A stretch of 63,814 nt of DNA, filler included, from Rozella allomycis CSF55 (lineage: Eukaryota): assembly GCA_000442015.1 (NCBI GenBank). It is 6 parts of 6 records of this genome, joined end to end, with 100 filler letters (N's around TTAATTAATTAA, not from the genome) between each part and the next. Parts side by side here need not be neighbours in the genome. Positions count along the whole stretch, not along the records: positions 1 to 19,690 come from KE560881.1; 5 more parts are not named here. One strand, 5' to 3'. This document shows positions 7,566 through 40,900 of this stretch, one piece after another. Numbering within the stretch: the first letter of the stretch is position 1; each line of letters starts with the position of its first letter. A program made the position numbers and the translations under genes. The notes under the pieces were generated by a model. It searched no databases. It saw nothing but the letters and a program-made list of their open reading frames with translations, and was not told the DNA's origin.

Positions 7566-7955
7566 TTTTCGGTTTCTATGCCTTCAATTTGTCGAATGTC
7601 AATTGTCATGGCATAAAAGTCGCGCCAGTTTTTTTATCTAATTTTCATTATCTTACTATTTAGCGAAACACTTTTTGTGATCTATTTAGATTTAGTATGT
7701 CGTGAATGTAAATTTGCGCTTTTCTGAAGAATGAATACTTTTTAAACTGAGAATTGAGAACTATAGCTCGGTTTATATTATATATAAGACAATGTAATAT
7801 TGTTGTCGATCGAAATGAAAGAATGATTTATTACAAATGATGCTGGATGACCTTATCATAATTGCAACAGTCCTTTGAGCATTAGAATTTCACAGTTCAT
7901 CTTTTTATCTCGAGATCGACAAATATCAAAACCAATTACCAATTTTTCAAAATAT

Positions 7956-8732
7956 ATGAAAGTCAATTTCCCTTCCTCGGGAGACGCGTATTTAAGGCTA
8001 GAAAAACGAGAGGAAATATTCATTCTTCATCTTTGCAATAGTGACAATCGATTTAATAGGATTTCAGCCAAGGCCTGGAATGATGCGTTGGATCTAGTCG
8101 AAAAGCATTCTAGCAAGAATCCAAGAACCGCATTAATCACTATTAATGAAAATGGTAAAATATTTTCAAACGGATTGGACCTTTTCAGCTTGATTGAAAC
8201 TAATGATTCTACATTCATCGGGGAACAATACTTACCGTTACTTTACAGGTTTCTGGTCTTTCCTGTTCCAACAATTGCGGTAATTCGCGGGCATGCATTT
8301 GCCGGCGGTTGTCTTATTGCTCTTGCTCATGATTACCGTATCATGAAAAAGGAAAGGGGTTTTATGTGTATGAATGAAGTGGAGTTGCCGTCTCCATTAT
8401 CATTATTGATGTCCAGTGTAATAAGATTGAAATTTAACGGTACAAAAGAATGGAGAGGTAGTTATTTTTATTTTTCATTCTTAGAGTGTGCTTTAAGAGC
8501 TAAAAGATACAATGCAGAGGAAGGTGTACGTCACGGTATTGTGGACATTGCAACTTCCGATGATGATGTGTTGAAAGAAGCAATTAAAATGGCGAAAGAT
8601 CTTATGAATTTAGCTGAGAAAAGTGGGAAAGTATACGGACTTCTTAAACAATCGTTGTATTCTGAAGCTCGCGAAGCCCTTAACAAAGAGAAGGGGCTTG
8701 TTTTTAACATGGCGAATACCGTAAAGCTTTAG
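7956..8732 (+). CDS. Delta3,delta2-enoyl-CoA isomerase (crotonase fold), probably peroxisomal
   Basis: KIFSNGLDL, PVPTIAVIRGHAFAGGCLIALAHDYRIM, MNEVEL motifs; ends -VKL (PTS1-like); probable in-frame 27-nt intron at 8458-8484. Confidence 0.85.
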   Translation: MKVNFPSSGDAYLRLEKREEIFILHLCNSDNRFNRISAKAWNDALDLVEKHSSKNPRTALITINENGKIFSNGLDLFSLIETNDSTFIGEQYLPLLYRFLVFPVPTIAVIRGHAFAGGCLIALAHDYRIMKKERGFMCMNEVELPSPLSLLMSSVIRLKFNGTKEWRGSYFYFSFLECALRAKRYNAEEGVRHGIVDIATSDDDVLKEAIKMAKDLMNLAEKSGKVYGLLKQSLYSEAREALNKEKGLVFNMANTVKL

Positions 8733-9001
8733 TTAGTAAATTTATTTTCTTTCAATTTTGTCACATTTCGATATTTGATTTCATGTCGGGCATTGGGAAA
8801 CTCAATGGTAAACCATGTAGAATAATCAATCCTCCTAAATCCATCGAAAAAGTTTTTACAATAACATACGCCCAAATATGTAGTATTTTTCGAAGACAAA
8901 CATTATTTAGTAGCTCTTTAAAATACGCATTGATTTAGCAACAGCTAATTTTGGTCATTGATGCTAAAAATAGACCAAATAAAAGGCGTTCCCTGGGTCT
9001 G

Positions 9002-10267
9002 ATGCAGGGGAAGATGATTTTAGTTCTTGAAGATAGACTTGAAATATCAAATGAGTCTTATATAGAATCTCTTGATCACACTATAAGATATTTGCGTAAG
9101 TACGCTGATCTAGCCTTAAACATAAAGATTCTAAGTATAATTTCGACAGACATAACTGAAATCCCATTTGACTTGTTTCCTTTGCTTCCCAATCTGACCA
9201 AATTAGTTATTGAAAAAAGTGCGATACAAAGCCTTCAACTTCAAAGATGGCCACAATGGATTGCAAAGCAATTAACAAAGTTGCATATTTATGATAGTGA
9301 AATAAGCAGTCTCACGAACGAATTAGTCTCATTGTTTGAAAATTTAACTGAGCTATCACTAATTGGCAACAAAATAAGTGGTCATGTTGAAATTGAAAGT
9401 CAAACACTTTTGTTTTTGAATTTATCAGGTAACTCAATCGAAACTTTAAAATTGCAATCAAATTCGCTCAAAGCCCTCGCGGCAGAATCCAACAGGCTAA
9501 AATCTCTTGATTGCAATACAAAAGAATTGATAGCACTATCTCTAAAAGACAATCATCTGTCAAATGGATCCTTGGATTGTTTCAAAAATTGCCATTCATT
9601 GAGCTTTGTTGATTTAGAAAAGAACTTGTTCACGGACATTGACAAATTTCTTTTGTTGATGGATGATTTATCAACTCTGAATATGAGGTCGAACCCAGTT
9701 ACATTTATACCCGGAGAAGTTATATTTCAGGCAACGTTTCTAAACATTAAAGTTGATCATCGAGATTTTGCTAAAGATAAAGTTGCCATGCGAAAATTTG
9801 ATCTTGTTCCAAGTCTTAAGGAAATTTCTTATTTACAATTGAATTTGAACGTCAATCAAGTAAAATATATTCCTGAAACGGCAATCAACATGGAATGCAC
9901 TGACTGTAGTCTTTGCGCATCGAAATGTGTATTTGAAGAGTCGGTTAACAAATTATACGAGGTAGCTGATGACTGTTATTTTCCAATTCGATTTTCACTT
10001 TGTAGTCATTGTAAAAGATGGCTTACGTTGAATTCTCAGAGCAATGGCTGTGCAACCGAAAATCCAATTTTAAATTCACTGTTGTTTCAAAGAATGACCA
10101 ATAACGGTAGAATAAATTCTATCGGCAAGCTCCTATTCATGAAATCTGCGTTGAAATGGCTCCTGGGCGACAATCCAGTCATGAAAATTGAAGAATATGA
10201 AGAGTTAACTTTACAGCATTATCGACCGATCTTCGATGAATTTTTATTGCCGAATCTCGATGATTGA
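9002..10267 (+). CDS. Leucine-rich repeat protein with C-terminal BC-box-like and Cys-rich module (LRRC58/LRRC69-like layout)
   Basis: Multiple LxxLxLxxNxI repeats, then VPSLKEIS and CxxC...CxxC (CSLC, CSHC). Confidence 0.7.
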   Translation: MQGKMILVLEDRLEISNESYIESLDHTIRYLRKYADLALNIKILSIISTDITEIPFDLFPLLPNLTKLVIEKSAIQSLQLQRWPQWIAKQLTKLHIYDSEISSLTNELVSLFENLTELSLIGNKISGHVEIESQTLLFLNLSGNSIETLKLQSNSLKALAAESNRLKSLDCNTKELIALSLKDNHLSNGSLDCFKNCHSLSFVDLEKNLFTDIDKFLLLMDDLSTLNMRSNPVTFIPGEVIFQATFLNIKVDHRDFAKDKVAMRKFDLVPSLKEISYLQLNLNVNQVKYIPETAINMECTDCSLCASKCVFEESVNKLYEVADDCYFPIRFSLCSHCKRWLTLNSQSNGCATENPILNSLLFQRMTNNGRINSIGKLLFMKSALKWLLGDNPVMKIEEYEELTLQHYRPIFDEFLLPNLDD

Positions 10268-11869: not shown

Positions 11870-12507
11870 TCACTTAAAAAGATTCCAATCATTAATTTTG
11901 AATGATTTCAAAATTTGTTTAAAGACCTTGAGTGAATCTTCACTTTGATTTTTTGCAGAGAATTCTTCTTTATCAACGGTTCGGCTGCTACTACTTTCTT
12001 CAGCTAGAACGATCGGATTATTCATAGAAATTAAAATATCAGTCTCTATGGAAGGTATTCTTATAACAGCCAGATAGATTCGGACTACATTTGATGCTGT
12101 TTCTCGGAATTTCGATATCCTCTGTTCGCCTTCAACAAGTTTTACTTTGCAATCGACCCTCTAAACAAAAATCTGTATTATTACTCTTTCAGGAAAGGCA
12201 ATTCTGATTGAACATCAACATTATCATCACGTGAAATAAGAAAACTTTCAGCTGAACTATCTTCGGCAAGCTGTTCAAAGTGATATCAAATTAAAATAGA
12301 AAAAAAAGTTTACCTGCCAAAAGATATACTTTCTGAATCTTCTGCCATAGTGTTTAGCTCAATTATAACACTCATATCAGTTTTAACATCTGTAAACACT
12401 TCTTGGTGGTCTGGAATTTCGCGAAGAGTACTAACATCGATAAAAGCATCTGGTATAGCAAGGCTTATCGCGCCTCCGTAAAGGCTTCTTTGTTGAGCGA
12501 TAGTCAT
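11870..12507 (-). CDS. MOG1: Ran guanine nucleotide release factor Mog1
   Basis: RSLYGGAISLAIPDAFIDVSTLREIPDHQEVF; later exons give ISKFRETASNVVRIYLAVIRIPSIETDILISMNNP and end DWNLFK*. Confidence 0.9.
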
Positions 12508-12798
12508 GGTGGCTAAAACACGGAAAATCTCTTTTTTAATATTGCAAAAATGAAAATGATATCTTATATATTTTAAATCATTAATCAAGCACAAGCTGCA
12601 ATAATGTTGACATTTGGGTTCTAAAAAAGTAAAAATTCATATGAAAAAATGCATAAGATATTCGTAATGATATAATACACTGAGCATTTTTTTCTTTAAT
12701 TTATTGTTTTTAAATCACTGGCCTATATTTAGTTACTTTCGAATAGCATAGCATCTTTTTCGGTTTTACTGGGACAAGCCACTACTAAGCCGCACAAA

Positions 12799-14706
12799 AT
12801 GTTAAAGGAAAGAGTTGTTTTCATCAGTTTAGTATTAGCATTTAGTATTTTGCTGTCTATATTTTTAGTTGAATATTCCGAGGATCAAGGGGGCTTGGAA
12901 TATGCAACTCTTGCAAACGAACCTCAGACTATGAACCATTTTGAAGTTATTGAAATAAAGCCACAAGACAAATGGAAAAAGAGATTGGAGAATCCTATAA
13001 TAATAAATCGTGCAAGTAGTGAATATAGTGAATTTTGGAAAAAGCAGGAGAAACTTGACTTTGGTTCAATATTAAGGCTTGATTTTACGAAAATGGATAG
13101 AGATACAGTCAAATCTAAAATAGAAGATATAATGTTTGATAATATCAGGCGTACTTTTGGAGATCCTGGTCAATACAGAATGGTCGAGGGTGATGATTAC
13201 CTTGTTACAAGCGATGGGGCGTCAAAACATATTCAATTTGTAGATGCCTTTAGTCTTGAAAAATTTCCTGACATGTATGCTGTTATATACTCAATAATTA
13301 TACGAGTGGATAAAACTAAAGTTCCAAAGTTAATGGTATTTGATCCGCCATTGTTTGCTCGAAATGTTGCATTGCACGTTCTTACTCAAGGAGTGTTCAT
13401 ATCTGAAATTTTAATTAACGGGGTGTTTGTTAATAATAATTATAGAAAAAATGGATACCGAATATCAAATCACTATCATCAATTACGGGTACGCAAGTTC
13501 CCACTAGCTCAATTTCGAGGCGATAGAGATTCATCTAAAGCGGGTACTATAGTGAGAAAATATCCAAATTACTATATTGATATTTACAAAAACGACGCAG
13601 AAGATATTTTAAGCGCTGGAAACAAGTATTTTAGTGATGTTCATTTGAGTTACTCTGTGGCTCTAGGAAATGTTCATTTTGGAACTACTATTGGGAATGG
13701 TCCAAGAAAGTAAGCAACATTTAACATTATAATAGGCAATTTTTAACTGATTATTTTGAAATGGGATCGAAGAAATATTTCGAGATTCAAAAGGAAGGTG
13801 ACGGAACATATGATCTGAAGGCTGCACCATTGAACAAGGATTTAAGAAATCAGTATATGAGAGAACTTTCTTTGTTTGGTTATTTAATTATGGAATCTAT
13901 TTCCGAAGGTGTTCACGTCCCACTCAAGTTTCGTGATTGGGTATATAAAAAGATAATGCACAATTCAAAAGCGACATTGGATGATTATAAAACATATGAC
14001 ATTCATGGATACAATGGAATGATGGCAATGAAAAATTATAATGATGAGGAACTTCAATATGTCGATGAATCCTTGACTCGTGATAATATTGATGAATACA
14101 TCGTTAACGAAATTAACGAAAGACTTATGAGAGTTGATGAATGGGAAGCTTTTATTTCAGGGTTGTTAGTTTTTATTGATTTTGATCAAACTTTTGAAAC
14201 ATATTTTGCTCAAAATGGTAAAATTCCGCCTCTGAGTTTCCTACACGTAAAATTAGTGGGATTTTTTTCAGTTTAGGATACTTTGGAAACAAAAATATTG
14301 ATTGAAATTGATGACTGGAAAAAACACACTAGACTTTCCAATTGTGGACCCGATGATAAACAAGTGGAATATTTTTGGCAAGTAATAAGCGATGATTTTA
14401 TGAATTAGTTTTTGCAAGATGCTACCCAAGAAGAGCGACAAAAAGTGCTGTATTGGACCACTGCAATTCGATCGTTGCCTCCAAACGGGTTTTCGGGAAT
14501 CAATCAATTGTTTGTTATCGAATGCACTAACACTAGCCTTTGTCAGGATGATTCAGCTCCTCTTCCTACAACTTCCACATGGTAATTTATTAGTTGTATA
14601 AATATGCAGCTTTAATACAATCAAGTTATGCCGATACAAAAATCAAGAATTGTTAAAACGAAAATTGTTGCAAGCGGTCGAAAATACCTCCTTTGAATTA
14701 CTCTAG
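12799..14706 (+). CDS. HECT-domain E3 ubiquitin ligase with N-terminal hydrophobic signal/anchor, 5 introns
   Basis: GNGPRK|QFL, FGYLIMESI, FWQ|FLQDATQEERQKVLYWTT, LPTTSTC|FNTIKL (catalytic Cys codon TG|C split by a 28-nt intron) and KLLQAVENTSFELL*; N-terminus VVFISLVLAFSILLSIFLV. Confidence 0.85.
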
Positions 14707-15572
14707 AAAAGGGCTACCGAAAAATGTCACTTCTAAGTTATTTTTGAAGCTACTCCAATAAATCGTTTTAAATTGAAACTTAAAGTTGAAGTCCCTAAAT
14801 CAGGATACAATCCTTTAATTATTATCTTTGGTTCATCAATCAATAAAGGAAAAGCGGTGCATCTCGAATTCACCGATACCTTTCTTTGTTCGGTTAATCT
14901 ACAGGTTGATGATCAGTATCATTTCAAAATGGCTCTCGGTTAATGGGAAAATTGGCTGACATATAACATTTCGGGTAAATTCGCAATACGATTTCTTTTC
15001 TATTTTGAATCTTCAGGTGATATGAACATGAATTACCCTTAAGGCAGTCAGCTATCTTCTGCAATATCAGTGTCTTAGTCTATTTTAGTCTAAAGATGCG
15101 TTTCTTTCTTGAGATATACGAATTACCATCATCTTTGTCCCTTTAACTATTCGCCTATGTATTCATCGGCCAAATCCATCTTACTCTACGTCTTATTCCA
15201 CGTATTCGACCACAGAATTCGATCCGACCTCAAGTTACTCAATGAAATTGAACCCTCCTTTTCTACGACTACATCTAAATATGCGATTGAAAGGCCTCAA
15301 TTTCGAAAACTATAATCAATGTCTATGTCCGTGCATACCTTCAGCCTAGCGCCCGCCTCCTCGTCAAAAATGTCCATTCGGTAATCACCTTTATCCTATT
15401 CCTCTACAGGGAAGGTTTACCTCTTCAGCTGATTTTAAATGTCCCATCACTTATAATGCAAGAAGAATTTTGAGAGTTGTTTTGCCATCAATCCAGTTTC
15501 ACATTATTGTAATCACCTGTTGATTCCGTTCCACATTTGAGATTTCATGTAACAAGTAGCAACCGAGTCAAA

Positions 15573-16991
15573 ATGGAATTTTCAAATCCGGAGCCGTATT
15601 GGATCCTCAATACTAAAAAAAGCGATGTTGCAACAAATTTCAAAAATAATCGTCTCAGTCGAATGAAGAAAGATGGCAAAGACAACAGTGTCGTCGACGT
15701 TAATGGAATATGTTCTTACATCAAGACATTAGATTACAAGAAAACCATAATAGAAGATGAAGATTTGCATTTTGATTTCATGTCGCAATTAAGTTCATTT
15801 TGCCATAAAGAGCCGAAAAAGGTAGCGAAACACAAAACAAAGCCCGTCAGGTTAAAGCCTATCGATGCTGTTGTGAAAGTGAAGGAGGGGAAAGTAAATG
15901 ATGTTAAACCCCAAAACAATCAAGATCAAGTGGAGGAAGATGGGCAGAATTTTAAGAGTATTCCGTACGACCATTCGCTGGCCAAAGACTTGCTATCAAA
16001 ATTGCCTCATGCACGAACTAAACTTGAACTTAGACAGTTATACCATTTGCTGAAACAATTACCAGCATTTTCGAAGCTTTCGGCATTTGTGTTGGAGCAA
16101 CTATGTAGTGTGATGCATTTTAACTATTCAGATGCTGATCGAGTAGTATTTCTGCAGGGCGATGTAGGTACTTCATGGTATGTGATTCTCAAGGGAAAGG
16201 TCAGTGTCAGTGTGTCTAAAACTGGACAAGCGACGGATGCGGTGGTAGTGAAAATATTGGGAGAGGGCGAAGGATTTGGAGACCTTGCATTGATTAATGA
16301 TAAGCCAAGGGCGGCTACTATAATAACAATCGAGAATTGTGAATTTGCTCGGATAGAAAAGGATGACTATAATAGAATTTTAAGGTTTCTGCATGATAGG
16401 GATATTAAGCAAAGAAGTAAAATGTTGTATAATTTGAAAGAATTTGAAAAATGGACACCGGAAGCAATGAAACAAATTGCTGGATTATTTGATATTAAAA
16501 AGTATAATAAAGGACAGATTATCATACGGGAGAATGAAAAGGCAGATAATTTCTTTATCGTAAAGGGAGGATTGTGCGAAGGATCGAGATTGTATCTCGG
16601 GGAAGATAAACCAAAAAGTGTGATCGTGGAAAGATTTGATGCACGAGACTATTTTGGAGAGAGATGTTTTAATCGATCTATTGATGGATCCATTGTTACT
16701 TATGGGGTTACAATAAGGGCGATAGACGATGTAACGTTGATAGTTTTCTCGGGGTATGATGCTGTGACACGATTTAACAATACATTTATAGCTCGAAAGT
16801 ATTTGAAATGGACGCAAGATGATTTAAAGATATTGTATCAACAACAATGTGAAAACGATAGAATGAGAAGGGAGAAGAGCAAAATATTGAATGGAGTGAT
16901 TAAAGAGAGGCACAAAGATCCTGCTAGATTGTATAAAGGAAATATGACCAATGATCAATTGAAATTTCAAAAATGTGTTTGGCATTACTAA
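15573..16991 (+). CDS. Cyclic-nucleotide-binding domain protein with two CNB domains (CNBD-like)
   Basis: VVFLQGDVGTSWYVILKG, FGDLALINDKPRAATI (intact phosphate-binding cassette); second domain IIRENEKADNFFIVKGG...YFGE. Confidence 0.85.
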   Translation: MEFSNPEPYWILNTKKSDVATNFKNNRLSRMKKDGKDNSVVDVNGICSYIKTLDYKKTIIEDEDLHFDFMSQLSSFCHKEPKKVAKHKTKPVRLKPIDAVVKVKEGKVNDVKPQNNQDQVEEDGQNFKSIPYDHSLAKDLLSKLPHARTKLELRQLYHLLKQLPAFSKLSAFVLEQLCSVMHFNYSDADRVVFLQGDVGTSWYVILKGKVSVSVSKTGQATDAVVVKILGEGEGFGDLALINDKPRAATIITIENCEFARIEKDDYNRILRFLHDRDIKQRSKMLYNLKEFEKWTPEAMKQIAGLFDIKKYNKGQIIIRENEKADNFFIVKGGLCEGSRLYLGEDKPKSVIVERFDARDYFGERCFNRSIDGSIVTYGVTIRAIDDVTLIVFSGYDAVTRFNNTFIARKYLKWTQDDLKILYQQQCENDRMRREKSKILNGVIKERHKDPARLYKGNMTNDQLKFQKCVWHY

Positions 16992-20687: not shown

Positions 20688-23600
20688 TTAATTAGAATCC
20701 AATTTTGATCTCTTTTGCTTTTTGAATGATGCAAGGGTATTTTCATATTCTTTTAATGAGTGTATAAACGATTGAATAATGACAGTCAAGTGGGACTCTT
20801 CATCCAATTCATCAACATCGATTTCCTTGTAATCTTTGACATCTTCCAATTCCTTGAAATTCATTTCTTTGTAATCTGTGAATATGGAATGAAGAATGTT
20901 TAATAGAATCAATTTTGAATGAATGGGTAATTTAGATTTAACTAAATCCCTAAATTCCTTGTGAGTATTTGAAAAAGTCTTTTTGAATTTTATAAATTTA
21001 GGATCATCAATTGGAATATCGTCAATGATTTGCAATGTATTTTCATAACTATTTTGATAGATTGTTATTCTTGCTTTTTCAAGCCACTTCTTTAAGGAAT
21101 TTACTATTCTATTAGACAGCAACAAAGATTCAACAACATCTATTTTATTTCCACCTTCATTTACATTATCACTATTTATTTCGCTCAATAGATGAGAAAT
21201 TGAAATTGTTGGAATTATAGAATTTTCATTTGTAGATTCTAGAATGTATAGATCAGATTTATATTCAAGTAAATCTAAATCAGTTTCAAGATCAAAGTCA
21301 TCTTTAGGTAGGAGATGATTGTTCAAAGGTAAAGTATTTAAAGCAAAAATGACTTTTAATTGATTTAATCTTGAAATAAAAAAGTCTTCATCATCTAAAG
21401 AATAATTGTATTGATTAAACCACGAGCCTAATTCATCATTATGCATCAATGATAGAAATTTACAAAGTGTACCAAGTTCTCTATTTAATCCATGATCATT
21501 CTCAGATATCCCATTTAAATGTTCAAAGAATAGAACATTATAAAGGGGATAAATGTGATTAAATAAAAGAGATTTTGTTACAATAAGATCAACCAAGCCA
21601 CCCTTGTGTAGAGTTAATTGACAAAGAATCAATCTTTCTAATAAATAGATGACAGACAAAGGATCAAAATCTTCAAAATAATTATAATAAATATCTTGTA
21701 TGATGCGACTATATTGATTTGTGCAGCCAAGAACTCTGTAGAATAAGAGTTCTGGTCGAATCGTTGATTTGAGAATATCTGAAATTTTCTTGAATGAACT
21801 TTCCAAATTTTCATGAATTATTTTAAAGATGAAATAGCCGCTTTGAAAAGAATTATAAACCAACAATTGGTGGATTAAATAGAATGAAAATTTTAATGGA
21901 AAAGATTTCATTCTTAAAACAATTGAACAAGAAGAAAGAAATTCAGATAAAATAAATTTAAATTGTTTTTGATTTGAAGATTGATTTAGAACCAGGGTTG
22001 AATATTTTATCATTAGATTTGAAAAAGTTGAAATTAAATTAAAATGAAAATTATTTTCAATATCTGAAATGTCAGAAAATGTCAGAATGCAATTCTTCAA
22101 TTTTAAAAGAATTTCCATTTGATCTACAAAACATTTTTCTTTAAAGAAATTATCCAACTCTTTTGTTAAATTAGATTTGTCTTGAATTTCATTAGAAGTT
22201 TTTAAACTATCATTAGAAGCATTTACAGTAACAGTGTCACTACATGAGTCCTTTAAAGTATTAACATCACTTTGTTCATTAGACTTTGAATTGCTAATAT
22301 CCACTGGCGCACATTCATTGTTATTATTCAACGTATCTTTAACAGTAATTTCCTTACTCTCTTTATCTTCATTAACACTATTGAATTCAACAATGTCGCT
22401 GCCTTCACTAGTCACATTGGAATCATTAGCATCATTAACTAGAACTGTATCACTACATTCAACAACTGTATCACTACAATCTTTGCTATCAACACCTTCA
22501 ACAACTGTATCACTACATTCTTTAACGTCATTAGCAACATTAACAACAGTAACTTCTTCAACTTTAGCAACATTAACTTGTTTATTATCATCTTTATCCA
22601 CTTTAGCAACATTAACTTGTTTATTATCATCTTTAACAACTATATCATTAACAACTTTGGCTATTAACTCTCCATTAATCAATTCAACATTGAAATTTAT
22701 TAAAGCAAAGTATGAAATAATTTCACCGACAAATTTAGATTTAAAATTATTTGAAATTTTATTAATGCTTGTCAGAAAAGAAGATTTCTCTAAATTTTTA
22801 AAACTTTTGTTCAAATTTGAATGCCAACCATAAAGTTTAACATAATCTCCATTTTTATTAACATTCAAGAATCCAAAATTTCTGTAAAATAAAATATTCT
22901 TGTGTTCATTAAATTGATCTGTCAACATTTTATTAATAAAATCAAAATATTCAAAATTAAACAATTTAAATGATTCACAAACATTAATAAAATCTTTAAA
23001 TTTTGATTCTTTAATTAAATAGTAAATTCTTGTAAAAATAATCAATTTGAAATAAAGTGGATCTATTTTGGAAATTTCCAGATCTAACATTTTCAATAAT
23101 TCTAAAACATTCCTTTCAGTAAACAATCTACCAAAAACTTTATAATCTTTGTTTTTCAATATTTCATCAATTATCAAATTTTCATTATTTAAATCAAATT
23201 TAAATTGATAAATAGAATATGAACTAATTAAAGTCTTGAACATTAAATCTGGATAATCCTTTTTTAATTCAGAGCTTTTAGAAACAATCATTGCAGCTCT
23301 TTCAATGTTATCAGCTTTATCCACTAAAAGATCAACACACAATCGTTTATTTCCTTTTTGTTCCAAATGATCAATGTAATTGTTTATATAATCTTGGTTT
23401 TCATCCAACAATGAATAAATAAAATCTTTTTCTTTTATTTCATCAATCACTCTACCAGCTGACAAACCAGTAGTGATTTTAGCACTCCCTTCAACCTTTT
23501 CTTTAACATCTCCTTTCCCTTGAAGCTTTTCCCTTTCCACGCTTTCTCTTTGTAACCTTTCCTTGTCTCTCTTTTCCTTTTCTATTAAATAATTGGCAAT

Positions 23601-26600
23601 CTCTTTCAAAAATTGTAATTTCAATTCTTTATCAATAACTTTAAACTCATTTTGATGATTAACAATAATTTCAAAAGCTTTTTCATAACACTTAGCATTT
23701 CTAAAACAAAGAAGAGAATTGTCGTAATCTTGAATTTTCAGAAACAAATTTCCAGCCTTAACAAAATCATCAGCATTGAAGAAACATTCAGCTGCCAATT
23801 TAAATTCATCAATTTTTTCAAATTCAATAGCAGCCTTCTTCAACAATGATTGTTTTTGATTTTTAGATAAGCTTTTGGATTCCAATTCATAAATTTTAGC
23901 CTGACAATAAGAGATTTTATAGACATTATCAGTATTTTTAAAGCAATTCAAAGCTTGAACATACATTTCTTTATTAAAGAATTCATTGCCTTTTTTATTC
24001 CATTCACTGTCAGAACTTTTAACCGCCAAAGTGTAATTTTTATTTTCATATTCAGCCAATTTAAAATTTATTAATAGATTGAAAAAATACAATGAATTTT
24101 CACTTGTATCAAAAAACACTAGAAGATTTTTAGCCCTGGTTATTCCAACATACAGAAATTTTAAATCATTAAAAAAAGTTGAATTATTTGAATGCTCAAA
24201 GTTAGAATTCTTTCCTTTAAAATAAGTATTCATTTTTTCAGCAAAATTTTCATTTAAATCTTCTTGAACAATTTTATCTAAAATTGTTAAATATCGCCAT
24301 TTATTCTCCAATAAAGAACTTTTAAAGAAATCGAAAATTACAACATCAGAAAATTCTAAACCTTTGGATTCAGTAATTGTTAAAACTTGAGCCTTTTTAT
24401 TATTTTCTTCAAGAATTCTTTCCAATTCCTTCTTTTTGAATTCATCTTTAACAAGAATGACTTGATCAGCCCCAAGTGAATTAGAATCTCCATACAAATA
24501 GATCAAGAAATTCTCAATGTTTCTGTGATTTAATATTGTTGGTTTCATTGTAGAATTAATAGCTCCAACTTCATCCTCCAATTTATCAATCTCAGATGGA
24601 AAAAAGAAATGAATTAATCTAGTTACGAAATTTCCTACTTTTAAAATGTTGGCTTGAGATCTAAAATTCTTCTTCAATTGAAACAAGTGCGGCAAAATAG
24701 ACGAATTGTTGTAATCATTCTTATTATCAGCAATAAAATAATAAAACAAATCTTTAATTATTTCAAATTTAAATATATTTCCTTCAGTGATACATTGAAC
24801 TTGATCACCAGCCAATGTAAACAAGGTTTGATTATCTCTTCTCATCAATAATTTAATTAACGCCATTTGAATCGGCAATAAATCCTGGATTTCATCAATG
24901 TAAATATAATCAAACACGGCTAAATTGTCATTTTGATGCAATTGATTAAACAAATGAAAACAAATATCTGAAATATCAAAATCTCCATTTTCATTTTTAT
25001 TTTTTTCATACTTTAAATAAAGTTGATAAATTTGTTCATAATCTACCTTGTTCAATTTACTCCTCCTAGTCTCGCCCTGTTTAATATATTTTGACATTTC
25101 CAAACATCTTTTATTCTCAATTAAATTATTGAATGATCCTTTAATATAAAACATTATTTCATTAAAAATATTTAAAGCTTCTGATTTTGTCTTACCTTTG
25201 AAATATTTTCTATGAAATTTCTCAAATCCAACAAAATTGTTTTCAAATGATTTCAAGTTGTTTCTTTTTAATTTATTCACGCTACTTGCATTTCCTTTAC
25301 CAACGCTCATTCTCATTTTATACTTTTCATATTCCAATTCGTTCATCAACATTCTATCTTCACAAAATGAATCTAAATAGATCAATAACCGCTTAAAAGA
25401 TAAGAATTTCGCATCAGATTCAATATTCATTTTCTTGATTTTATTAATCTTTGATATTTGCATTTCATATTCCTCTTTTACATTTCTGCAAAGGATTTCA
25501 CTTGCAGTTAAAAATAATTGCTTTCCATTCAAGTGTGACTTGAAATTATTAAAACTGACACAAAGCAATCTCCTTGATATAACACTAGTTTTGCCCGTTC
25601 CACTTCTACCAACGATAATCAAATTCTTTTTGTATTTAACAATCTTATTTTCTGTATCTTCCAACAAGTAAGGCAACTCTTTATAATCTTCAAAGTTATT
25701 CTCCAATAGAAATTCCAACGCTTCTGAATTTAAGGAATAGATTTTGCAGCTCAGATTTGATTCTTTTGAATTAGTTAAATTGGCTTGTGCTTGATCCACA
25801 CAGTCAAACCTTTTTATCCCTGTAGTCTCTGCCAAATCAAATCTGTTTGGATAAATTATTCTATTCTCATCCAAAACTAATTCACAAAAACATAAATTCA
25901 AATATTTTATGCTAAATTTATTAATGTTCTTTTTAAAAATTTCAAATCCTTTATATATTTCAGTTCCACTGATTAAATCCAACACTTCCAGCACTTGAAT
26001 TCTTTTATTCAAATCAACACCAATCGTCCAAACTATCTTTTTATTATCTCCAATGTCCTTCGCATAAAATATATTCCCTGCTTTATATTTTTCTTTTATC
26101 ATTTCCACACTATTAATATATGGTCTGTTATTGATCCCGCCAAAATTTCCTCGTGTCAATCCAATAATGAAATTAATCGCATTTCTCTTGATCAAGACTT
26201 GTTCTTTACTAATCTTCTTTAACGCATTGTCAACACTTCTCAAACTCCAAATTCCCTTCACATTTACCACTTTATTATTAATCAATTTCATTATTTCAAA
26301 TCTGTTTTCACTCTTCTCAATCTCTTGTATCATTAACCCATTCATCTTCTTGTTCCATAATTCTCTCAAATTAGCGGGAAAGGATTCATATATTGTATTC
26401 ATAGCAAAAAACGAACTCGTTGACATTACCATTCTCATCATATCCGTCCACAAATTAGACGATGAAAATGTATTCGCATCTCCAAACACCCATAATGCTC
26501 TTCTAGCTCTCGTTATAGCTACATTCATTCTCTGCGCATCCTCAACAAACCCAATCTCTTGCTGTGGATTAGATCTTGTCAATGACAATATTATTATATC

Positions 26601-28669
26601 CCTCTCATGTCCCTGATATGCATCAACAGTCCCGACATCAATTTCCTTTTCAACGCCAATCATTCTCATTGCTTCTTTAAAATCACCCATCTTTTCTTTA
26701 AATATTTCCACTTGATAACTGTATGGGCAGATTATGCTAATGGTGTCCTTTTCTTTTGGATAACAACTCACAAAATAAGACAAAAATGCTAAAATATGGT
26801 TTGCTTCAATTAAATTCCCCTTCGATCCGCTCAATGAACTATTTTCCATAGAATTGAAATGATTTATAAACATCAAAGGCTTGAAATACTTGGAGTCATA
26901 CCACTCGCATTTATAATTCAACACCTTCTTCGAATTCTTCAATTCGTTATCATAGAATGCCTTAGATGCAAATTTCACAATGTCTTTGTGCATTCTAAAT
27001 TGCTCTTTCAACATCACTACAGATTCGAATCCACTCCTTAACAATCTTTCAAAAAAGCTTGTCGCTCTTCCACTATCACGAATATCTTGAGATTTGCACA
27101 ATCCTGGTAACTGCTTTTCATCTCCTACAAGTGTAATCGACTTGATTCCATTGCGCAATAAGCTTAGTATCTCCCATTCCAAGCATTGACTGGCTTCATC
27201 CACAATCACCCGTCCACATTTTTCATTTATTAACCTTGAAGATAATGATGAACTCAAAGTACAAACATATATGGATGCTATTTAACGCTAAATAATTGAG
27301 GTACCATATTTTATGTAGTCTTTGGATATGTCAATATAGTCCTTCTTTTTACTGATCCTTGTTAATACATGTGATATATTCCACAAGTCATACAACGATA
27401 TTTCACCGTTTTCAAACTTTGTAATCGATTTTTTTATGCCATCAAATAGAGTTTTATGCTTAGTTATCACATTTTCATATCTCAAAATCTGCATTAGATT
27501 GTCCTCCATTGCTGCATACACATCATTTAAATTTTCATAATGTACAATACTGTCACGTTGAAGTAAATTCGTTATCAAGTCTGTCGCTATCGTTATTGTT
27601 CGAAAATATTCATTTATTCTCTCTTCCAACAAATACGGTCTTGTATCAGCATTCATTAATTCGATCAAAGTATCATATCTTCCAACTAACACTATCTTGA
27701 ACGGATCAATATTAAGCTCCCGGATGATTTTATTCAATAAACACACAACTGCGACATTTGTTTTGGCGGTAACCAAAATTGTTTCACCTGGAAAAAGATT
27801 TACTAGCCCTTCAATAATACCAACAATAGTTTGCGATTTTCCTGTTCCAGGAGGTCCCTTTACAAGCGAAATAGTGTTGCTATAATTAGCAACTACGGAC
27901 ATTTTATTGCCTCACGCTGCTCTTCATTCGCATTGTCGTATATTGCAGATTTAGATAATTCATAATTAATATGGTTCCGAGGTGCAACAAAAGGACTCTT
28001 GTAATGATCAACTCCATTCAAAACAATATTGCGTATGGAAGAAGGTATCAAATTTCTCTCGAACATCAAGGATCGTAAGAATCGAAAACCCGGACAAAAA
28101 CCAGCTATTGGAAGCAAATATCCTTCCTTAAATTGGCGATAATTATCACTTTTGTACATTATTTCCAATTTAAACTGCACAATCACTTGGGCTTGGGCAT
28201 CATCATTTGGAACTTGACGCTGGCCATATCCATAATTCTCTTGATCAATGATAAGAATGCCTATTATATGATTAGAAGTATAGAAATCTTCAAATCTCGC
28301 CACCCTTTCTTCTGATAGACAAACTAAATCCATATGCATGATCTCAGGCAACTCTTCGGAAAAAACAAAGCTTATCCTGGACTCATCCTCTCGCAACGAA
28401 AATGGAAAAGATTGACGATAAGTACTAGACTTGGACAAGTTTTCAACCACTTCAGTTCTCATTTCTTCTTTCACCAGAACAGACATGTAATCACACATCC
28501 CTTTAATAGATCCATACTCATCATTCAAGATTTTCGCTCGATAGTCTTTTTTGCAAAATGCGGGTATTCCATCACGCAAAAAGTTAAAGATTTTTTCCAC
28601 AGTCATATTTTCTACCCCTGCTTTTCTCGACGCGAAAATATATAAAAGATCAGTTGAGAAATCTCGCAA
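20688..28669 (-). CDS. Giant dual SF1 helicase: Upf1/Sen1-like helicase + RelE-like linker + UvrD/TRANK1-like helicase + TPR + low-complexity C-terminus
   Basis: First helicase GPPGTGKS, VDEASQ, VGDEKQL, QFRMH, TVDAYQGHERD, RMNVAITRAR; second GRSGTGKTS, YIDEIQD, AGDQVQCI, LKKNFRS, TITESKGLEF, LYVGITRAK; then TPR-like WNKKGNEFF...AAECF. One 27-nt intron near 27268-27294; frameshift near 27900; start uncertain. Confidence 0.85.
22420..22650 (-). repeat. Coding minisatellite-like repeats inside the helicase gene
   Basis: KDDNKQVNVAKV occurs twice and CSDTV three times here (once more near 22235). Confidence 0.8.
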
Positions 28670-37900: not shown

Positions 37901-40900
37901 ACTATTTTACTTTGGTTATAGAGATTCCAATTGAATATTCAATTTGTTTATTTCTGTTTGGAATTAAAACATGATTTTCAATTGAATCAAAGTTTATTAA
38001 TCTGCTCCAATCAGAGTCCATCACTTTTAAATAAACCTTATTAAAACTAGCCAACGTTATCTTTGAATTATTAAAGTTTGAATTATTAAAGTTTGAAGTG
38101 TATTGATAACTTCTTTCACCACTCTCATCATCTACTTCAGAGTCATACCAGTTGATGTTCTCTTCCTTGTATTTAATTAATAAACCAGTTTTATTCAAAA
38201 TAACAAAAGGAGATGAAATGGAAACTCTTTTTGAAATCCCAAATTGATTTAAATTTTCATATTCAATTTTCAACTTTAAATTCTTGTTTCTAAAAGATAA
38301 ATTATAATCAACTTCATTTCCATTTATTATAGCTTGACCTTGTTTAAATTCAGTTTCTAGAATATCAACCAAGATTGAAATTGTCTTTTTAATGTCAATT
38401 TGATTCATTGCATATTCTTCAACACTTTTAATAATCCCTCCAAATGCAAATGATTTTTCTTCTTCATAAATTTTATAATAAATATCAAATGGTAAACAAT
38501 TCTGAATTATTAAACAATTATAAATAGTAATAGTTAAACATGGGTATCTTTATAAATCATCAAATCTAATTTTACTCGAAATTTTCTACTTTGATTTCTA
38601 ATTCAAATTTCAAATTTAATTTTTCATCTTTTAAATTTCTACATTCAATCAACATTGCACAATCTTTATTAAATTCTCTCCAATTGATTATTTCATTGCA
38701 ATATTCAATCCCTTCAATGTTTGGTCTCACTTTAATCACATTGTCATACAACAACATTGGATCAAACCCTCCACCATCTTCTGTTGCTATTTTAGGGATA
38801 AAAGTAGAAATTACCAATTAATATTTTAGATTTTAAAAGTAAAGAAGCATCAAGTAACGTAGCTTCAAATGGAAGATTAGTTTTATTTCTTATTTGAATT
38901 GTTGATTCAAAGCAAACATTCTATTCAACTAGAAAATTTAAACTTTTACTTTGATATTCCCATCCACAAACACATTCACACACACCAAATGTTTAGGGTT
39001 AGGGTTTAATAGGTTTGAAGTGTTTAAAGGGTTTAAAGGGGTTGAACTAGTGAATGAACTAGATGGACTTGTGGGCTCTCTTAATTCATTCCCCCTACTT
39101 ATTGGCTCTCTCAATTCATTCATCTTTTCCTTTTCAACGTCTCGCTTCAAGGGATAGTATTTGGTTCCTTCCTTGTCAATTGGAATTTCATTAATCTTTT
39201 TAAAATTATCCAATTTGATTGAAATCAACAATAATTGAATATTTCCCATTCTAGTTGAATCATTTAAATCTTTAAAATTAAATGGAATCTTTTCTCCATT
39301 TTTAATTAATCTCTTTTCATCTTTATTAAATAATTCAATTAAACAACCAGTCTTATTTATTATAACACATGGATACCCTTGTTTTCTCTTGTTTGGTTTC
39401 TTTTCTATTTGTTCAAAAATGTTTTTTATATTCTTCATGAATTGTTTATTAAGATTAACCATTAAATCATTCAATCCATTCAACTCATAATTCATTGTTC
39501 CCTTGTTGTCTTTATTCACCTTGATTTGAGTCTTAAATGATTCAACCAATGGTTCCCAATGGGAATTGCTAGAATTGAAATAGTTCACATTCATTTCAAT
39601 CTCACTCTTCAACTTTAAATTCAAATTCCAATCTTTCACTTCCATTTGATGTTTATCAATCTTTATATCCAATATTGGCAACTGACATTCACTAACATCA
39701 TCAATCAACAGAAACTTTATTCCCTGACTATTCCATGTCAACAATTCACTCATCACAATCAATTCACTTGAATCCATCCAAGTAACATTAACGTTCAAAG
39801 TATCACTATTAAGGTTTAAAGTAGTATTATTCAAAGTAGTAGTATCACTACTTGCACAAATTACTTCACCTTCACTACTTCTACCCCCATCAACTTCAAC
39901 TCCCCCTTCAATAAAGTTTGTTATAATTTTGTAAACCAATAAAATATCATGATAAGAAATTCTAAATACAATTGGCTTTGTATTCAACCAATAATTAACA
40001 CATTGATTCATTTGATCATTTTCTATCGTTAAAGATGCATCAAATTCATCAACAAATTTAAATAATTCTTTTTCATTCATATTCAACAAAAATAATCCAA
40101 AATTCTCAAAACTCAAACTTGAATTTCCTTTGGTTGAATACACAAACTGTTTCATCTTGATCAATATCGCTTCTGTCTCTTTATTCTTTAAATCTTCCAA
40201 AATAAACAATTCAAAGTTCACTACATTAACCAGAAAATAGAAAACAGAATTTGTATTGTTTTTTGACTGTGATTTAGAATTTGATTTAACATTTGATTTA
40301 AAAGTATTCCTTTGGGCTCCATTAGAACCTTTCAAATTCATTTCTACTTTATTATCTTTTTGGGGATAATTGTCAAGAAAAAATGATTTAATTGAATAAA
40401 TGTTATTTAAACTTGTAATCATTTTGGGACTATCAAGAGTTACTTTAACCATCCCATTCCCATTCTCTACCATTGTATACTGAATAAACAATTGTCCATC
40501 TGAATATTCACTCTCTGGTATTATTTGTGTATAATATTGTTTAATACTTCTAGTATCATCCAACGAAAATGAATCAACCCAAACATCAACCTGCATTTCT
40601 CCCCTGTCTCTCTTGAAATTCAAAACACTCTTGTTAATCTTAAACAAACAAAAATTCAAACATTTTCCATCTCTCAAATTGAACAATTCCAATTCTATCC
40701 CTTGCAATTCCACAACAATTTCATTAATCACTTTATCAGGTGTATTAAGATTTTGAAGAGCAAGAGTATTAAGAGTATTAGTTAAAGCACTCCCCATCAC
40801 TTGATCAGTCACTCCAGCAGTCACTTTACTATTCAATTCATCACTCCATTCACCCTCTACTCTCCCTTCTCCTTTCTCTCCAACTTCATCACTAAATATC

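Follow-up and report, generated by a model that had tools for sequence, protein, structure and literature searches.

The plus strand of Rozella allomycis, a parasite of water moulds, between positions 12799 and 14706 of the window, by which the whole stretch of 63,814 nucleotides analysed here is meant, very probably carries one five-exon gene for a membrane-anchored HECT ubiquitin ligase, a judgement made jointly on the gene model and the architecture of the predicted protein. After removal of four mini-introns of 26, 30, 27 and 28 nt, each with GTAA..AG borders and each restoring the reading frame, the product is 598 amino acids long. The coordinates given for this gene in a first-pass annotation of the DNA proved exact, with the ATG at 12799 and the TAG stop at 14704-14706.

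Exon 1 (12799-13709) is an open frame of 303 residues plus two bases of codon 304. The probability of a 304-codon open frame at the local base composition is about 5.5e-11, which excludes chance. Upstream ATGs are confined to 12550-12667 and the following 131 nt (12668-12798), a putative 5′ UTR with a presumed transcription start, contain none. The start codon at 12799, in the context CACAAAATGTT with an A at -3, is the first ATG behind this leader. The next ATG in frame is codon 45, which is preceded by an out-of-frame ATG. A true start 3′ of the hydrophobic segment, named in the first-pass annotation as a finding that would undo its reading, is thus disfavoured by both the position and the context of the ATG at 12799.

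Intron 1 (13710-13735, 26 nt, GTAAG..TAG) is predicted from the frame shift between exon 1 and exon 2 and is absent from the public models. Exon 2 (13736-14246) is followed by intron 2 (14247-14276, 30 nt, GTAAA..TAG), for which the public model P0004 uses the identical splice; versions of 59 nt and 39 nt were tried and rejected, since they either break the frame or lead it into a stop. Exon 3 (14277-14381) covers the end of the N-lobe or hinge and the start of the C-lobe. Predicted intron 3 (14382-14408, 27 nt, GTAAT..TAG) contains an in-frame stop, and the Pfam HECT profile positions are contiguous across it (221 to 223). Exon 4 (14409-14581), unannotated in the public models, extends the C-lobe as far as the second base of the codon for the catalytic Cys. 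Predicted intron 4 (14582-14609, 28 nt, GTAAT..CAG) is likewise spanned by contiguous profile positions (273 to 275); because it splits the codon of Cys567, an unspliced reading gives a W and then a stop at the catalytic site. Exon 5 (14610-14706) holds the last base of this codon, the FN motif, the tail and the TAG. An AATAAA at 14757-14762, 51 nt past the stop, is a possible polyadenylation signal by motif match only.

The Pfam scan was run exon by exon and not on the spliced protein. The HECT profile PF00632 (length 306, cut-off 23.9 bits) was found colinear on exons 2, 3, 4 and 5, at profile positions 12-112, 193-221, 223-273 and 275-305, with E-values of 2.2e-9, 0.021, 2e-6 and 2.8e-4 respectively. 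Exons 2 (37.8 bits) and 4 (28.1 bits) exceed the cut-off, while exons 3 and 5 alone fall below it. Against the PDB, 21 of 22 matches of P0004 were HECT chains, with WWP2 the best (E 1.4e-4 over 190 residues); residues 12-201 of P0004, whose residue 12 is residue 324 of our model, align to 91-294 of the 374-residue WWP2 HECT chain, and exon 2 aligns to the N-lobes of WWP2, ITCH and WWP1. All 25 matches of exon 3 were HECT chains (best SMURF2, E 1.8e-4), as were all ten of exon 5, which hit the HECT C-termini of ITCH, WWP1 and others at E 0.8-1.5. Exon 4 matched AREL1 as its sole HECT chains (two of seven matches, E 0.07). Searched by itself with phmmer, exon 2 matched no HECT chain, even with E allowed up to 10, and the tail of exon 1 by itself matched none either.

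The start of P0004 aligns about 80 residues inside the HECT fold by comparison with WWP2. Only eight of these residues lie in exon 2, therefore the remainder must come from exon 1. We infer that the fold starts within exon 1, between residue ~233 and residue 260, and that its first ~45-70 N-lobe residues are encoded by the exon 1 tail (13495-13709). From I260 to F306 there are 47 residues by an unscored count; in a printed alignment of the Rsp5 type, the F of ‘REF’ lies equally far from the first residue. Continuity of the fold between exons 1 and 2 rests on alignment offsets, as phmmer gave the tail of exon 1 no scored match. With the P0004-aligned part, about 90 residues in exons 4 and 5 and, by offsets only, the ~45-70 residues in exon 1, the length of a full bilobed HECT domain is reached.

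The first-pass annotation had reported that the catalytic Cys and the near-terminal Phe are retained, and both were recovered in the spliced model. Cys567 stands in a T-C-F-N context about 30 residues before the C-terminus, Phe595 occupies position -4 in ..SFELL, and the tail from FN onwards aligns to the C-termini of ITCH and WWP1. The Phe at -4 is important in HECT ligases. The printed Rsp5-type alignment has a His two positions ahead of the Cys and an LPxY behind it; in the Rozella protein both are replaced. The earlier description as a ‘compact, divergent HECT’ holds for divergence, the best relative being WWP2 at the E-value given above, but not for compactness, since the domain is of normal size (~340-366 residues). 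The subfamily signal among the PDB matches comes from WWP2, ITCH, WWP1, SMURF and Rsp5, and also from TOM1, at E 1e-4 to 0.2. As judged from these alignments, the catalytic domain (from residue ~233-260 to 598) appears NEDD4/Rsp5-like and is very divergent and complete. An AlphaFold2 model of P0004 made without an alignment reached a mean pLDDT of 52.5 and a pTM of 0.42; a Foldseek search of the PDB with this model returned no match at E <= 0.001, the model being too poor for this to carry meaning.

In the public annotation the gene is split into two hypothetical proteins, P0003 (304 aa) and P0004 (205 aa), and the catalytic lobe is omitted. P0003 is the exon 1 open frame read through to a TAA that is made by the GTAA of intron 1, because the first base of this intron is the last one of AAG, the final sense codon in that frame. 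P0004 is spliced at intron 2, then reads into intron 3 and stops there. It is very improbable that these models are right in spirit, that is, that there are separate products, a start at Met45 or later or a decaying gene, and no anchored HECT ligase. In favour of this view, the two proteins are annotated apart, introns 1, 3 and 4 are predictions from sequence and no scored HECT match was obtained with the exon 1 tail by itself. A word-index search of the protein collection for longer proteins also gave nothing: no protein of 299-2000 aa contained exon 2 and none of 532-2000 aa contained exon 1. Against it, P0004 could not be a working HECT domain, as it starts ~80 residues too late in the fold and has nothing of the catalytic lobe, and its own end is derived from intron 3. 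The Pfam match continues colinearly into exons 4 and 5, which can be reached only through the canonical introns of 27 and 28 nt. Moreover, the placement of intron 1 accounts for the TAA of P0003, intron 1 ends 10 nt past the stop from which the frame of exon 2 opens, there are only 47 nt between the end of the P0003 frame at its stop and the ATG of P0004, and the ATG at 12799 is the first one behind an ATG-free leader. The locus tags O9G_004835, O9G_004836 and O9G_004837 were not mentioned anywhere in a full-text literature search.

At the N-terminus, the MLKER followed by 19 hydrophobic residues that had been noted earlier is present as residues 6-24 (12814-12870), with a mean Kyte-Doolittle value of 3.0, the maximum of the protein for a 19-residue stretch. 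The summed value on an insertion scale is -4.1. The only confident part of an AlphaFold2 model of exon 1 is a helix of residues 2-31 (mean pLDDT 86, 90 and 61 for the first three blocks of ten residues). Since the next most hydrophobic stretch is not hydrophobic enough, the protein is predicted to have a single membrane-spanning segment. That stretch, residues 190-212, was considered as a second span and rejected (Kyte-Doolittle 1.45, sum on the insertion scale about +7); a real span there would return the HECT domain to the cytosol. The flanks of the anchor carry charges of +2 on the N-terminal side (K3, R5 and the amino end, less E4) and of -4 over the 15 residues on the C-terminal side, where an acidic stretch follows. 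By the charge-difference (positive-inside) rule, an orientation with the N-terminus in and the C-terminus out is therefore predicted, which would place the HECT part, translocated, outside the parasite cytosol; the rule is a statistical one. Counting against an outward-facing ligase, two N-x-S/T sequons, N550 and N592, lie near the catalytic Cys and the Phe at -4; their number is like that in shuffled sequences (2 observed versus 3.6 +/- 1.75, P 0.28). Also against it, by what Sharpe, Stevens and Munro reportedly described in 2010, an anchor of 19 residues is short for a fungal plasma-membrane span.

Between anchor and catalytic domain lies a lineage-specific region (12874-13494, residues 26 to ~232), devoid of Cys and of detectable relatives or domains. 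The first-pass annotation had spoken of an unrecognised domain of ~270 residues; unrecognised it is, but its length shrinks to ~207-234 residues (26 to ~232-259), because the HECT fold begins inside exon 1. As had also been noted, WW, C2, RCC1 and IQ motifs were absent from the 303 residues of exon 1. Pfam gave nothing above threshold for this exon and no C2 or WW at E up to 1, its sole row being H2O2_YaaD (E 0.059, 13.3 bits versus a cut-off of 29.6). Among 1.84 billion representative proteins the region had no relative, the two matches being its own cluster and a spurious repeat match. The latter (P0002, 819 aa, HMMER E 9.9e-8) was rejected as a relative of exon 1, for the match covers 36 residues at 33% identity and recurs on six repeats arranged in tandem in a protein of bacterial type. 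The ESM Atlas gave no usable match to exon 1 (best score for residues 26-250 of 0.76, below lead level), and none of the pattern matches from two metagenome scans (116 for P0004, 122 for P0003) was confirmed. The mean pLDDT of exon 1, modelled with AlphaFold2 without an alignment, was 35.5, with the orphan region below 50.

A search for a paralog family sharing the signal and HECT layout, as proposed in the first-pass annotation, found none in the window or in the protein collection. There is no second copy of the gene within the window, no other protein of the collection shares words with exon 2, and the 50% cluster has two members, both the same Rozella sequence. A single-copy ortholog of a conserved housekeeping HECT, which would have spoken against an effector, was not encountered either: the N-terminal region has no relative and the HECT domain has WWP2 as its best match, at E 1.4e-4. 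No Cys occurs in the first 496 residues, compared with a Cys content of 1.6% across 24 long open frames in the window. This is weak evidence for an effector-like trait, and such a run is not unique, another open frame of the window having one of 432 residues.

To our knowledge, E1, E2, ubiquitin and ATP are present only in a cytosol. Together with the predicted translocation of the HECT part, this therefore leads to a host-directed ligase as the working model, which is narrowly preferred and tentative, with a tether facing the parasite's own cytosol almost as likely. Sequence by itself cannot tell a parasite-internal tether from an enzyme aimed at the host. In the host-directed model the N-terminus would stay in the parasite cytosol and everything past the anchor would enter the secretory pathway; the wall-less parasite would expose the ligase on its surface or release it, and host E2 enzymes would load it. 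As in HECT enzymology generally, ubiquitin would be transferred from an E2 to Cys567, with formation of a thioester, and then passed on at the membrane surface to substrates picked by the orphan region. That the domain is in fact sent out, whether exposed on the naked surface of the parasite or on the membrane around it, or released, and tags Allomyces proteins by means of host E2s, is possible but on balance doubtful. Allomyces targets chosen by the orphan domain could serve, for instance, remodelling of the interface or recruitment of host mitochondria; Rozella is described as engulfing host cytoplasm and recruiting host mitochondria (PMC10953367).

Rozella sits in a compartment in the host cytoplasm, with a host-derived membrane around the parasite. 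Because of this compartment a ligase that is merely anchored would miss the host cytosol, and a further step would be needed to reach host E2s. We know of no translocation system for such a step in Rozella. Host-exposed proteins of the related microsporidia show, in the available text of Reinke et al. (2017, PMC5423893), an enrichment of signal peptides or transmembrane domains, of clade-specific proteins and of large families, with 35 of those identified falling into four such families. Set beside these traits, the Rozella protein has a signal or transmembrane segment and is clade-specific, and no large paralogous family was found for it in the window or the protein collection; since microsporidian host-exposed proteins favour such families, their absence counts against the host-directed reading. 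Orphan status and strong divergence, as seen in the searches, fit it. The secreted effector suggested in the first-pass annotation is thus backed in part, by flank charges of +2/-4 that favour translocation of the HECT domain, and weakened in part, by the lack of a paralog family, the compartment barrier and the precedent of AREL1.

This precedent underlies the strongest rival, which has a substantial chance of being correct and still less than an even one. According to it the segment would be a reverse signal-anchor, with the N-terminus lumenal, in the ER or another endomembrane; the orphan region and the HECT domain would face the Rozella cytosol and use parasite E1 and E2 on parasite proteins at the membrane, its likeness to AREL1 being due to convergence and not to orthology. 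HECT catalysis requires cytosolic E2~Ub by established enzymology, and the host-derived membrane around the parasite makes the supply of E2 to an outward ligase hard. Translocation of the N-terminus is feasible with just five residues before the anchor, and a 19-residue span suits early secretory membranes more than the plasma membrane. As far as the searches went the gene is single-copy, they turned up no paralog family, and the AREL1 chains were the sole HECT matches of exon 4. The flank charges are, however, the reverse of those expected for such a tether, and the rest of the HECT domain is nearer to WWP2, SMURF2 and Rsp5, AREL1 being absent from the 22 matches of P0004 and the 25 of exon 3. 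A housekeeping tether should also have fungal or microsporidian relatives, and none was found among the 1.84 billion representatives.

Both of these readings suppose an active enzyme. A third possibility is a translocated pseudo-enzyme or binding module that resides at the parasite surface or in the secretory pathway, with Cys and Phe kept by descent and not by selection. The charge rule, which assigns the domain to a compartment lacking E1 and E2, fits this reading. It would agree with the extreme divergence, with the failure of exon 2 alone to find a HECT chain by phmmer and with the replaced His and LPxY, and no orthologs were found by which constraint could be gauged. We consider it improbable, as the five exons are open, the four splice sites intact and the HECT length fully kept, and as Cys567 and the Phe at -4, the residues most tied to catalysis and normally lost together with activity, are both present.

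Human AREL1 is an ER protein whose transmembrane segment lies at the extreme N-terminal end, with everything else cytosolic (PMC12864862). It is the only HECT ligase with such a very N-terminal segment known to have been studied experimentally, and from the ER it faces its own cytosol. The alternative raised in the first-pass annotation, an AREL1-like membrane-tethered ligase, thus has an experimental precedent. The two proteins share one very N-terminal anchor, a non-catalytic region and a C-terminal HECT domain. They differ in that the anchor charges of the Rozella protein predict the opposite orientation and that its N-lobe and the start of its C-lobe are nearer to WWP2 and SMURF2. AREL1 furthermore carries a filamin-type repeat between anchor and HECT domain, whereas residues 1-303 of the Rozella protein are without a Pfam domain and so without such a repeat or any other domain past the anchor, which also speaks against an AREL1-like tether. 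With the NEDD4/Rsp5 group (WWP2, ITCH, WWP1, SMURF1/2, Rsp5) the protein shares its best sequence matches, an equal overall HECT length, the catalytic Cys and the Phe at -4; in contrast to that group it has no C2 or WW domains, an N-terminal anchor takes their place, and similarity is very low.

Secreted or anchored HECT ligases as candidate effectors are already in print for Pythium ultimum, of whose 56 HECT proteins 16 have predicted signal peptides and 10 signal anchors (PMC2926784). The likeness lies in a pathogen HECT domain behind a predicted signal or anchor with possible host targets, by prediction only in both organisms. The Pythium proteins form an expanded family, said in the available text to be related to plant UPL1/UPL2, in a necrotroph and not in a wall-less endoparasite, whereas the Rozella gene appears NEDD4/Rsp5-like, has an orphan N-terminal region and is without a second copy in our searches. 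For R. allomycis itself, Marin (2018, PMC5913265) counted six HECT genes, namely RSP5, TOM1, HUL5, UFD4, HUL4A and one unassignable, highly divergent ‘Other’. The gene described here may be this ‘Other’ HECT, which was read there as HUL4-related, with no N-terminal anchor mentioned in the available text.

Examples of pathogen E3 ligases from further afield differ in fold or origin. SopA and NleL are bacterial HECT-like effectors delivered by type III secretion, and PbE3-2 of Plasmodiophora brassicae is RING-type. PbE3-2 has been described as a secreted E3 ligase (bioRxiv 10.1101/2022.10.26.513834). The concept of a pathogen-made E3 that uses host E1 and E2 inside the host cell is common to these three and to the host-directed model, but their folds or origins are others, and none is known to combine a eukaryotic HECT domain with a signal-anchor at the N-terminus.

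Whichever reading holds, the Cryptomycota reference proteome is without the whole enzyme. It is reduced to two hypothetical fragments because three of the four introns of 26-30 nt were missed, and surveys of ubiquitin ligases, secretomes or effectors that build on the public proteome therefore miss the gene as a whole. An N-terminally anchored HECT protein is now seen outside animals, with a catalytic domain apparently of another subfamily, which suggests that the layout arose more than once. Should the predicted outward orientation be wrong, the protein would usefully illustrate that the charge rule can fail for very N-terminal anchors. Should it be true, the protein would be a testable candidate for manipulation of host ubiquitin by a wall-less endoparasite related to the microsporidia. 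Were the ligase in fact sent out to tag Allomyces proteins, it would represent a fungus-against-fungus HECT effector in the lineage leading to the microsporidia that had been masked by a mis-split gene model.

At 12799-14706 (+), the HECT gene opens with a frame of 304 codons, after which shorter open frames follow in different phases. A frame of 304 codons would arise at this base composition with P ~5.5e-11 and is thus not due to chance. Joining the frames requires four very short introns on the same strand, located at 13710-13735 (26 nt), 14247-14276 (30 nt), 14382-14408 (27 nt) and 14582-14609 (28 nt), all of which start with GTAA and end with AG. After splicing, an unbroken coding sequence of 1797 nt is obtained (598 codons and a stop). 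The junctions of introns 3 and 4 are fixed, since the Pfam profile PF00632 continues without gaps across both. The first base of intron 1 is also the third base of the last sense codon in the 304-aa frame, whose stop is formed by GTAA; the intron ends 10 nt past the stop codon at which the exon 2 frame opens. Together with a gap of only 47 nt between the two public protein models at this locus, P0003 (304 aa) and P0004 (205 aa), these positions argue for one gene and not two. Judged from these features, the five-exon single-gene model is very probably correct.

Both public models are fragments of this gene. P0003 is exon 1 read through to the TAA made by the GTAA of intron 1. P0004, named ‘HECT domain-containing protein’ in UniRef, begins with the ATG at 13761, is spliced at intron 2 identically to the five-exon model, then runs into intron 3 and stops. 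Exons 4 and 5, with the catalytic cysteine, are missing from both; the codon of this cysteine, Cys567, is divided by intron 4 and the unspliced frame reads Trp and then stop. The public protein ‘hypothetical protein O9G_004836 [Rozella allomycis CSF55]’ is 100% identical to exon 2. A search of the protein collection for longer products gave none, neither at 532-2000 aa with exon 1 nor at 299-2000 aa with exon 2. The exon 1 product (12799-13701, +) recurs in a further public record, P0001 (301 aa, contig of 2912 nt), where it is cut three residues earlier than in P0003; this record probably stems from a separate assembly of the locus. A full-text literature search for three neighbouring locus tags retrieved no paper.

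Exons 2 to 5 match PF00632 (306 positions) in colinear order on the forward strand, at profile positions 12-112 (E 2.2e-9), 193-221 (E 0.021), 223-273 (E 2e-6) and 275-305 (E 2.8e-4), respectively. Against solved structures, all 25 matches of exon 3 were HECT chains (best SMURF2, 1.8e-4), as were all ten of exon 5, to HECT C-termini with E ~1. Two of the seven matches of exon 4 were AREL1 chains (E 0.07), the other five being leucine-rich-repeat proteins, and for exon 2 by itself a cut-off as loose as E 10 still retrieved no HECT chain. P0004, covering most of exon 2 and exon 3, gave HECT chains in 21 of 22 matches, with WWP2 as the best (1.4e-4) followed by ITCH, WWP1, SMURF1/2, Rsp5 and TOM1. 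The predicted HECT domain is read as complete and very divergent. Best similarity points weakly to NEDD4/Rsp5 as the nearest family, but the C2 and WW domains of that family were not found by Pfam in the Rozella protein. Cys567 is flanked as T-C-F-N, and Phe595 occupies the fourth position from the C-terminus. The supplement of Marin 2018 (PMC5913265) prints an Rsp5-type alignment in which a His stands two residues before the Cys and LPxY follows it; both are replaced here. The same study counts six R. allomycis HECT genes and leaves one of them unassigned; this one, described as highly divergent, may be the present gene.

According to alignment offsets, the HECT fold begins within exon 1. Residue 12 of P0004 (residue 324 of the full model) aligned to residue 91 of the 374-aa WWP2 HECT chain, so about 80 residues of the fold would lie upstream of the P0004 start, Met313, only eight of them in exon 2. 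By our own unscored count, the printed Rsp5-type alignment has 47 residues from its first residue to the F of the ‘REF’ motif, and the same spacing runs here from I260 to F306, with codon 304 holding the junction of exons 1 and 2. Continuity of the fold rests on these offsets, as phmmer, run with the tail of exon 1 by itself, retrieved no HECT chain.

The region between anchor and HECT domain, from residue 26 to about 232-259, has no Pfam match. When 1.84 billion representative proteins were scanned in full with HMMER, just two matches reached E ≤ 0.001, one of which was the protein's own cluster. The other, an 819-aa bacterial-type repeat protein (P0002), was rejected as a relative: one 36-residue match at 33% identity recurs on all six of its tandem repeats and is read as a repeat artefact. 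The ESM Atlas search returned nothing usable for this region, no relative was confirmed in two metagenome scans and no second copy of the gene was found within the window. The region contains no cysteine and the whole protein none before residue 497, compared with 1.6% Cys across 24 long open frames of the window; this is weak evidence, because another frame of the window has a 432-residue cysteine-free run.

That run belongs to a 1308-codon open frame (38938-42864, −) in one of two window blocks, 22-28 kb and 38-44 kb, with low G+C (0.25-0.29) and strongly negative GC skew; the first block holds a 2197-codon open frame (20688-27281, −) with AAA_11/AAA_12 and UvrD-type helicase domains. Closer to the HECT gene, a divergently oriented Mog1 (Ran-binding) gene (12310-12507, −) starts 291 nt upstream. 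Its first open frame covers just profile positions 1-52 of 139, so the remainder must lie behind further mini-introns. Downstream, a 472-codon open frame (15573-16991, +) encodes two cyclic-nucleotide-binding domains. The other neighbours, an enoyl-CoA hydratase (7851-8729) and a leucine-rich-repeat protein (8939-10264), look like ordinary cellular genes.

The protein starts with MLKER, followed by 19 unbroken hydrophobic residues (6-24) with a Kyte-Doolittle mean of 3.0 and a summed insertion scale of −4.1. In the AlphaFold model of exon 1, a helix at 2-31 is the sole confident element, the first two ten-residue blocks having mean pLDDT values of 86 and 90 against 35.5 for the whole model. 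The next most hydrophobic stretch, 190-212, was rejected as a second membrane span (about +7 on the same scale). The start codon at 12799 is the first ATG past a 131-nt ATG-free leader and has an A at −3, whereas the next in-frame ATG, codon 45, lies behind an out-of-frame ATG, which makes translation from a point beyond the anchor unlikely. With the five-exon frame, residues 6-24, PF00632, Cys567 and Phe595, the HECT gene with an N-terminal anchor described in the first-pass annotation stands after small corrections. The effector reading proposed with it is not contradicted by the position of the start or by the lack of a detected relative of the middle region.

This proposal, that the ligase may be a host effector, keeps its premises and is partly supported; it turns on orientation and exposure to the host. 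The flanks of the anchor carry +2 on the N side (amino end counted) and −4 in the 15 residues after the span. Under the charge-difference rule for signal-anchors, such flanks predict N-in/C-out or a cleaved signal, and the orphan region and HECT domain would be translocated. Small residues possibly usable by signal peptidase occur after positions 14, 16 and 20, all inside the hydrophobic run. A HECT domain needs E1, E2, ubiquitin and ATP at its site of action, so an outward-facing ligase would be sensible only on meeting host cytosol. Counted for a host-directed ligase are the clade-specific, fast-evolving character and targeting signal of the protein, traits shared by proteins of the related microsporidia shown to be host-exposed by proximity labelling (PMC5423893), and the lifestyle of Rozella, which grows without a wall as a plasmodium, engulfing cytoplasm of the host and gathering the host's mitochondria (PMC6317583, PMC10953367). 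Against it, with a host-derived membrane around the parasite, an anchored ligase would face a gap and not cytosol, unless released and able to cross, or insert into, that membrane. No paralog family was found, and two sequons lie near catalytic residues, in a count no different from shuffles. A host-directed ligase is put at somewhat under an even chance.

Human AREL1, reported as experimentally an ER protein with a transmembrane segment at its very amino terminus and the rest cytosolic (PMC12864862), also counts against export. It has the same anchor-spacer-HECT layout, but carries a filamin-type repeat behind the anchor, where Pfam finds no domain in the Rozella protein. Among the pieces compared with solved structures, exon 4 matched AREL1 chains, whereas exons 3 and 5 and P0004 did not. 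A tether holding the ligase in the parasite's own cytosol, the alternative named at first pass, runs against the charge rule and is held almost as likely as the host-directed ligase. A translocated, non-catalytic protein and an error in gene model or start both appear very unlikely; unlisted alternatives take up the remainder.

HECT ligases with secretion signals as effectors are an idea already in print: signal peptides are predicted for 16 and signal anchors for 10 of the 56 HECTs reported for Pythium ultimum, and they are listed among candidate effectors (PMC2926784). Like the Rozella HECT, these are predictions too. As read from its sequence, the Rozella gene encodes a predicted N-terminally anchored or secretion-signal-bearing HECT ligase whose substrate-side region is an orphan and whose public model is wrongly split.
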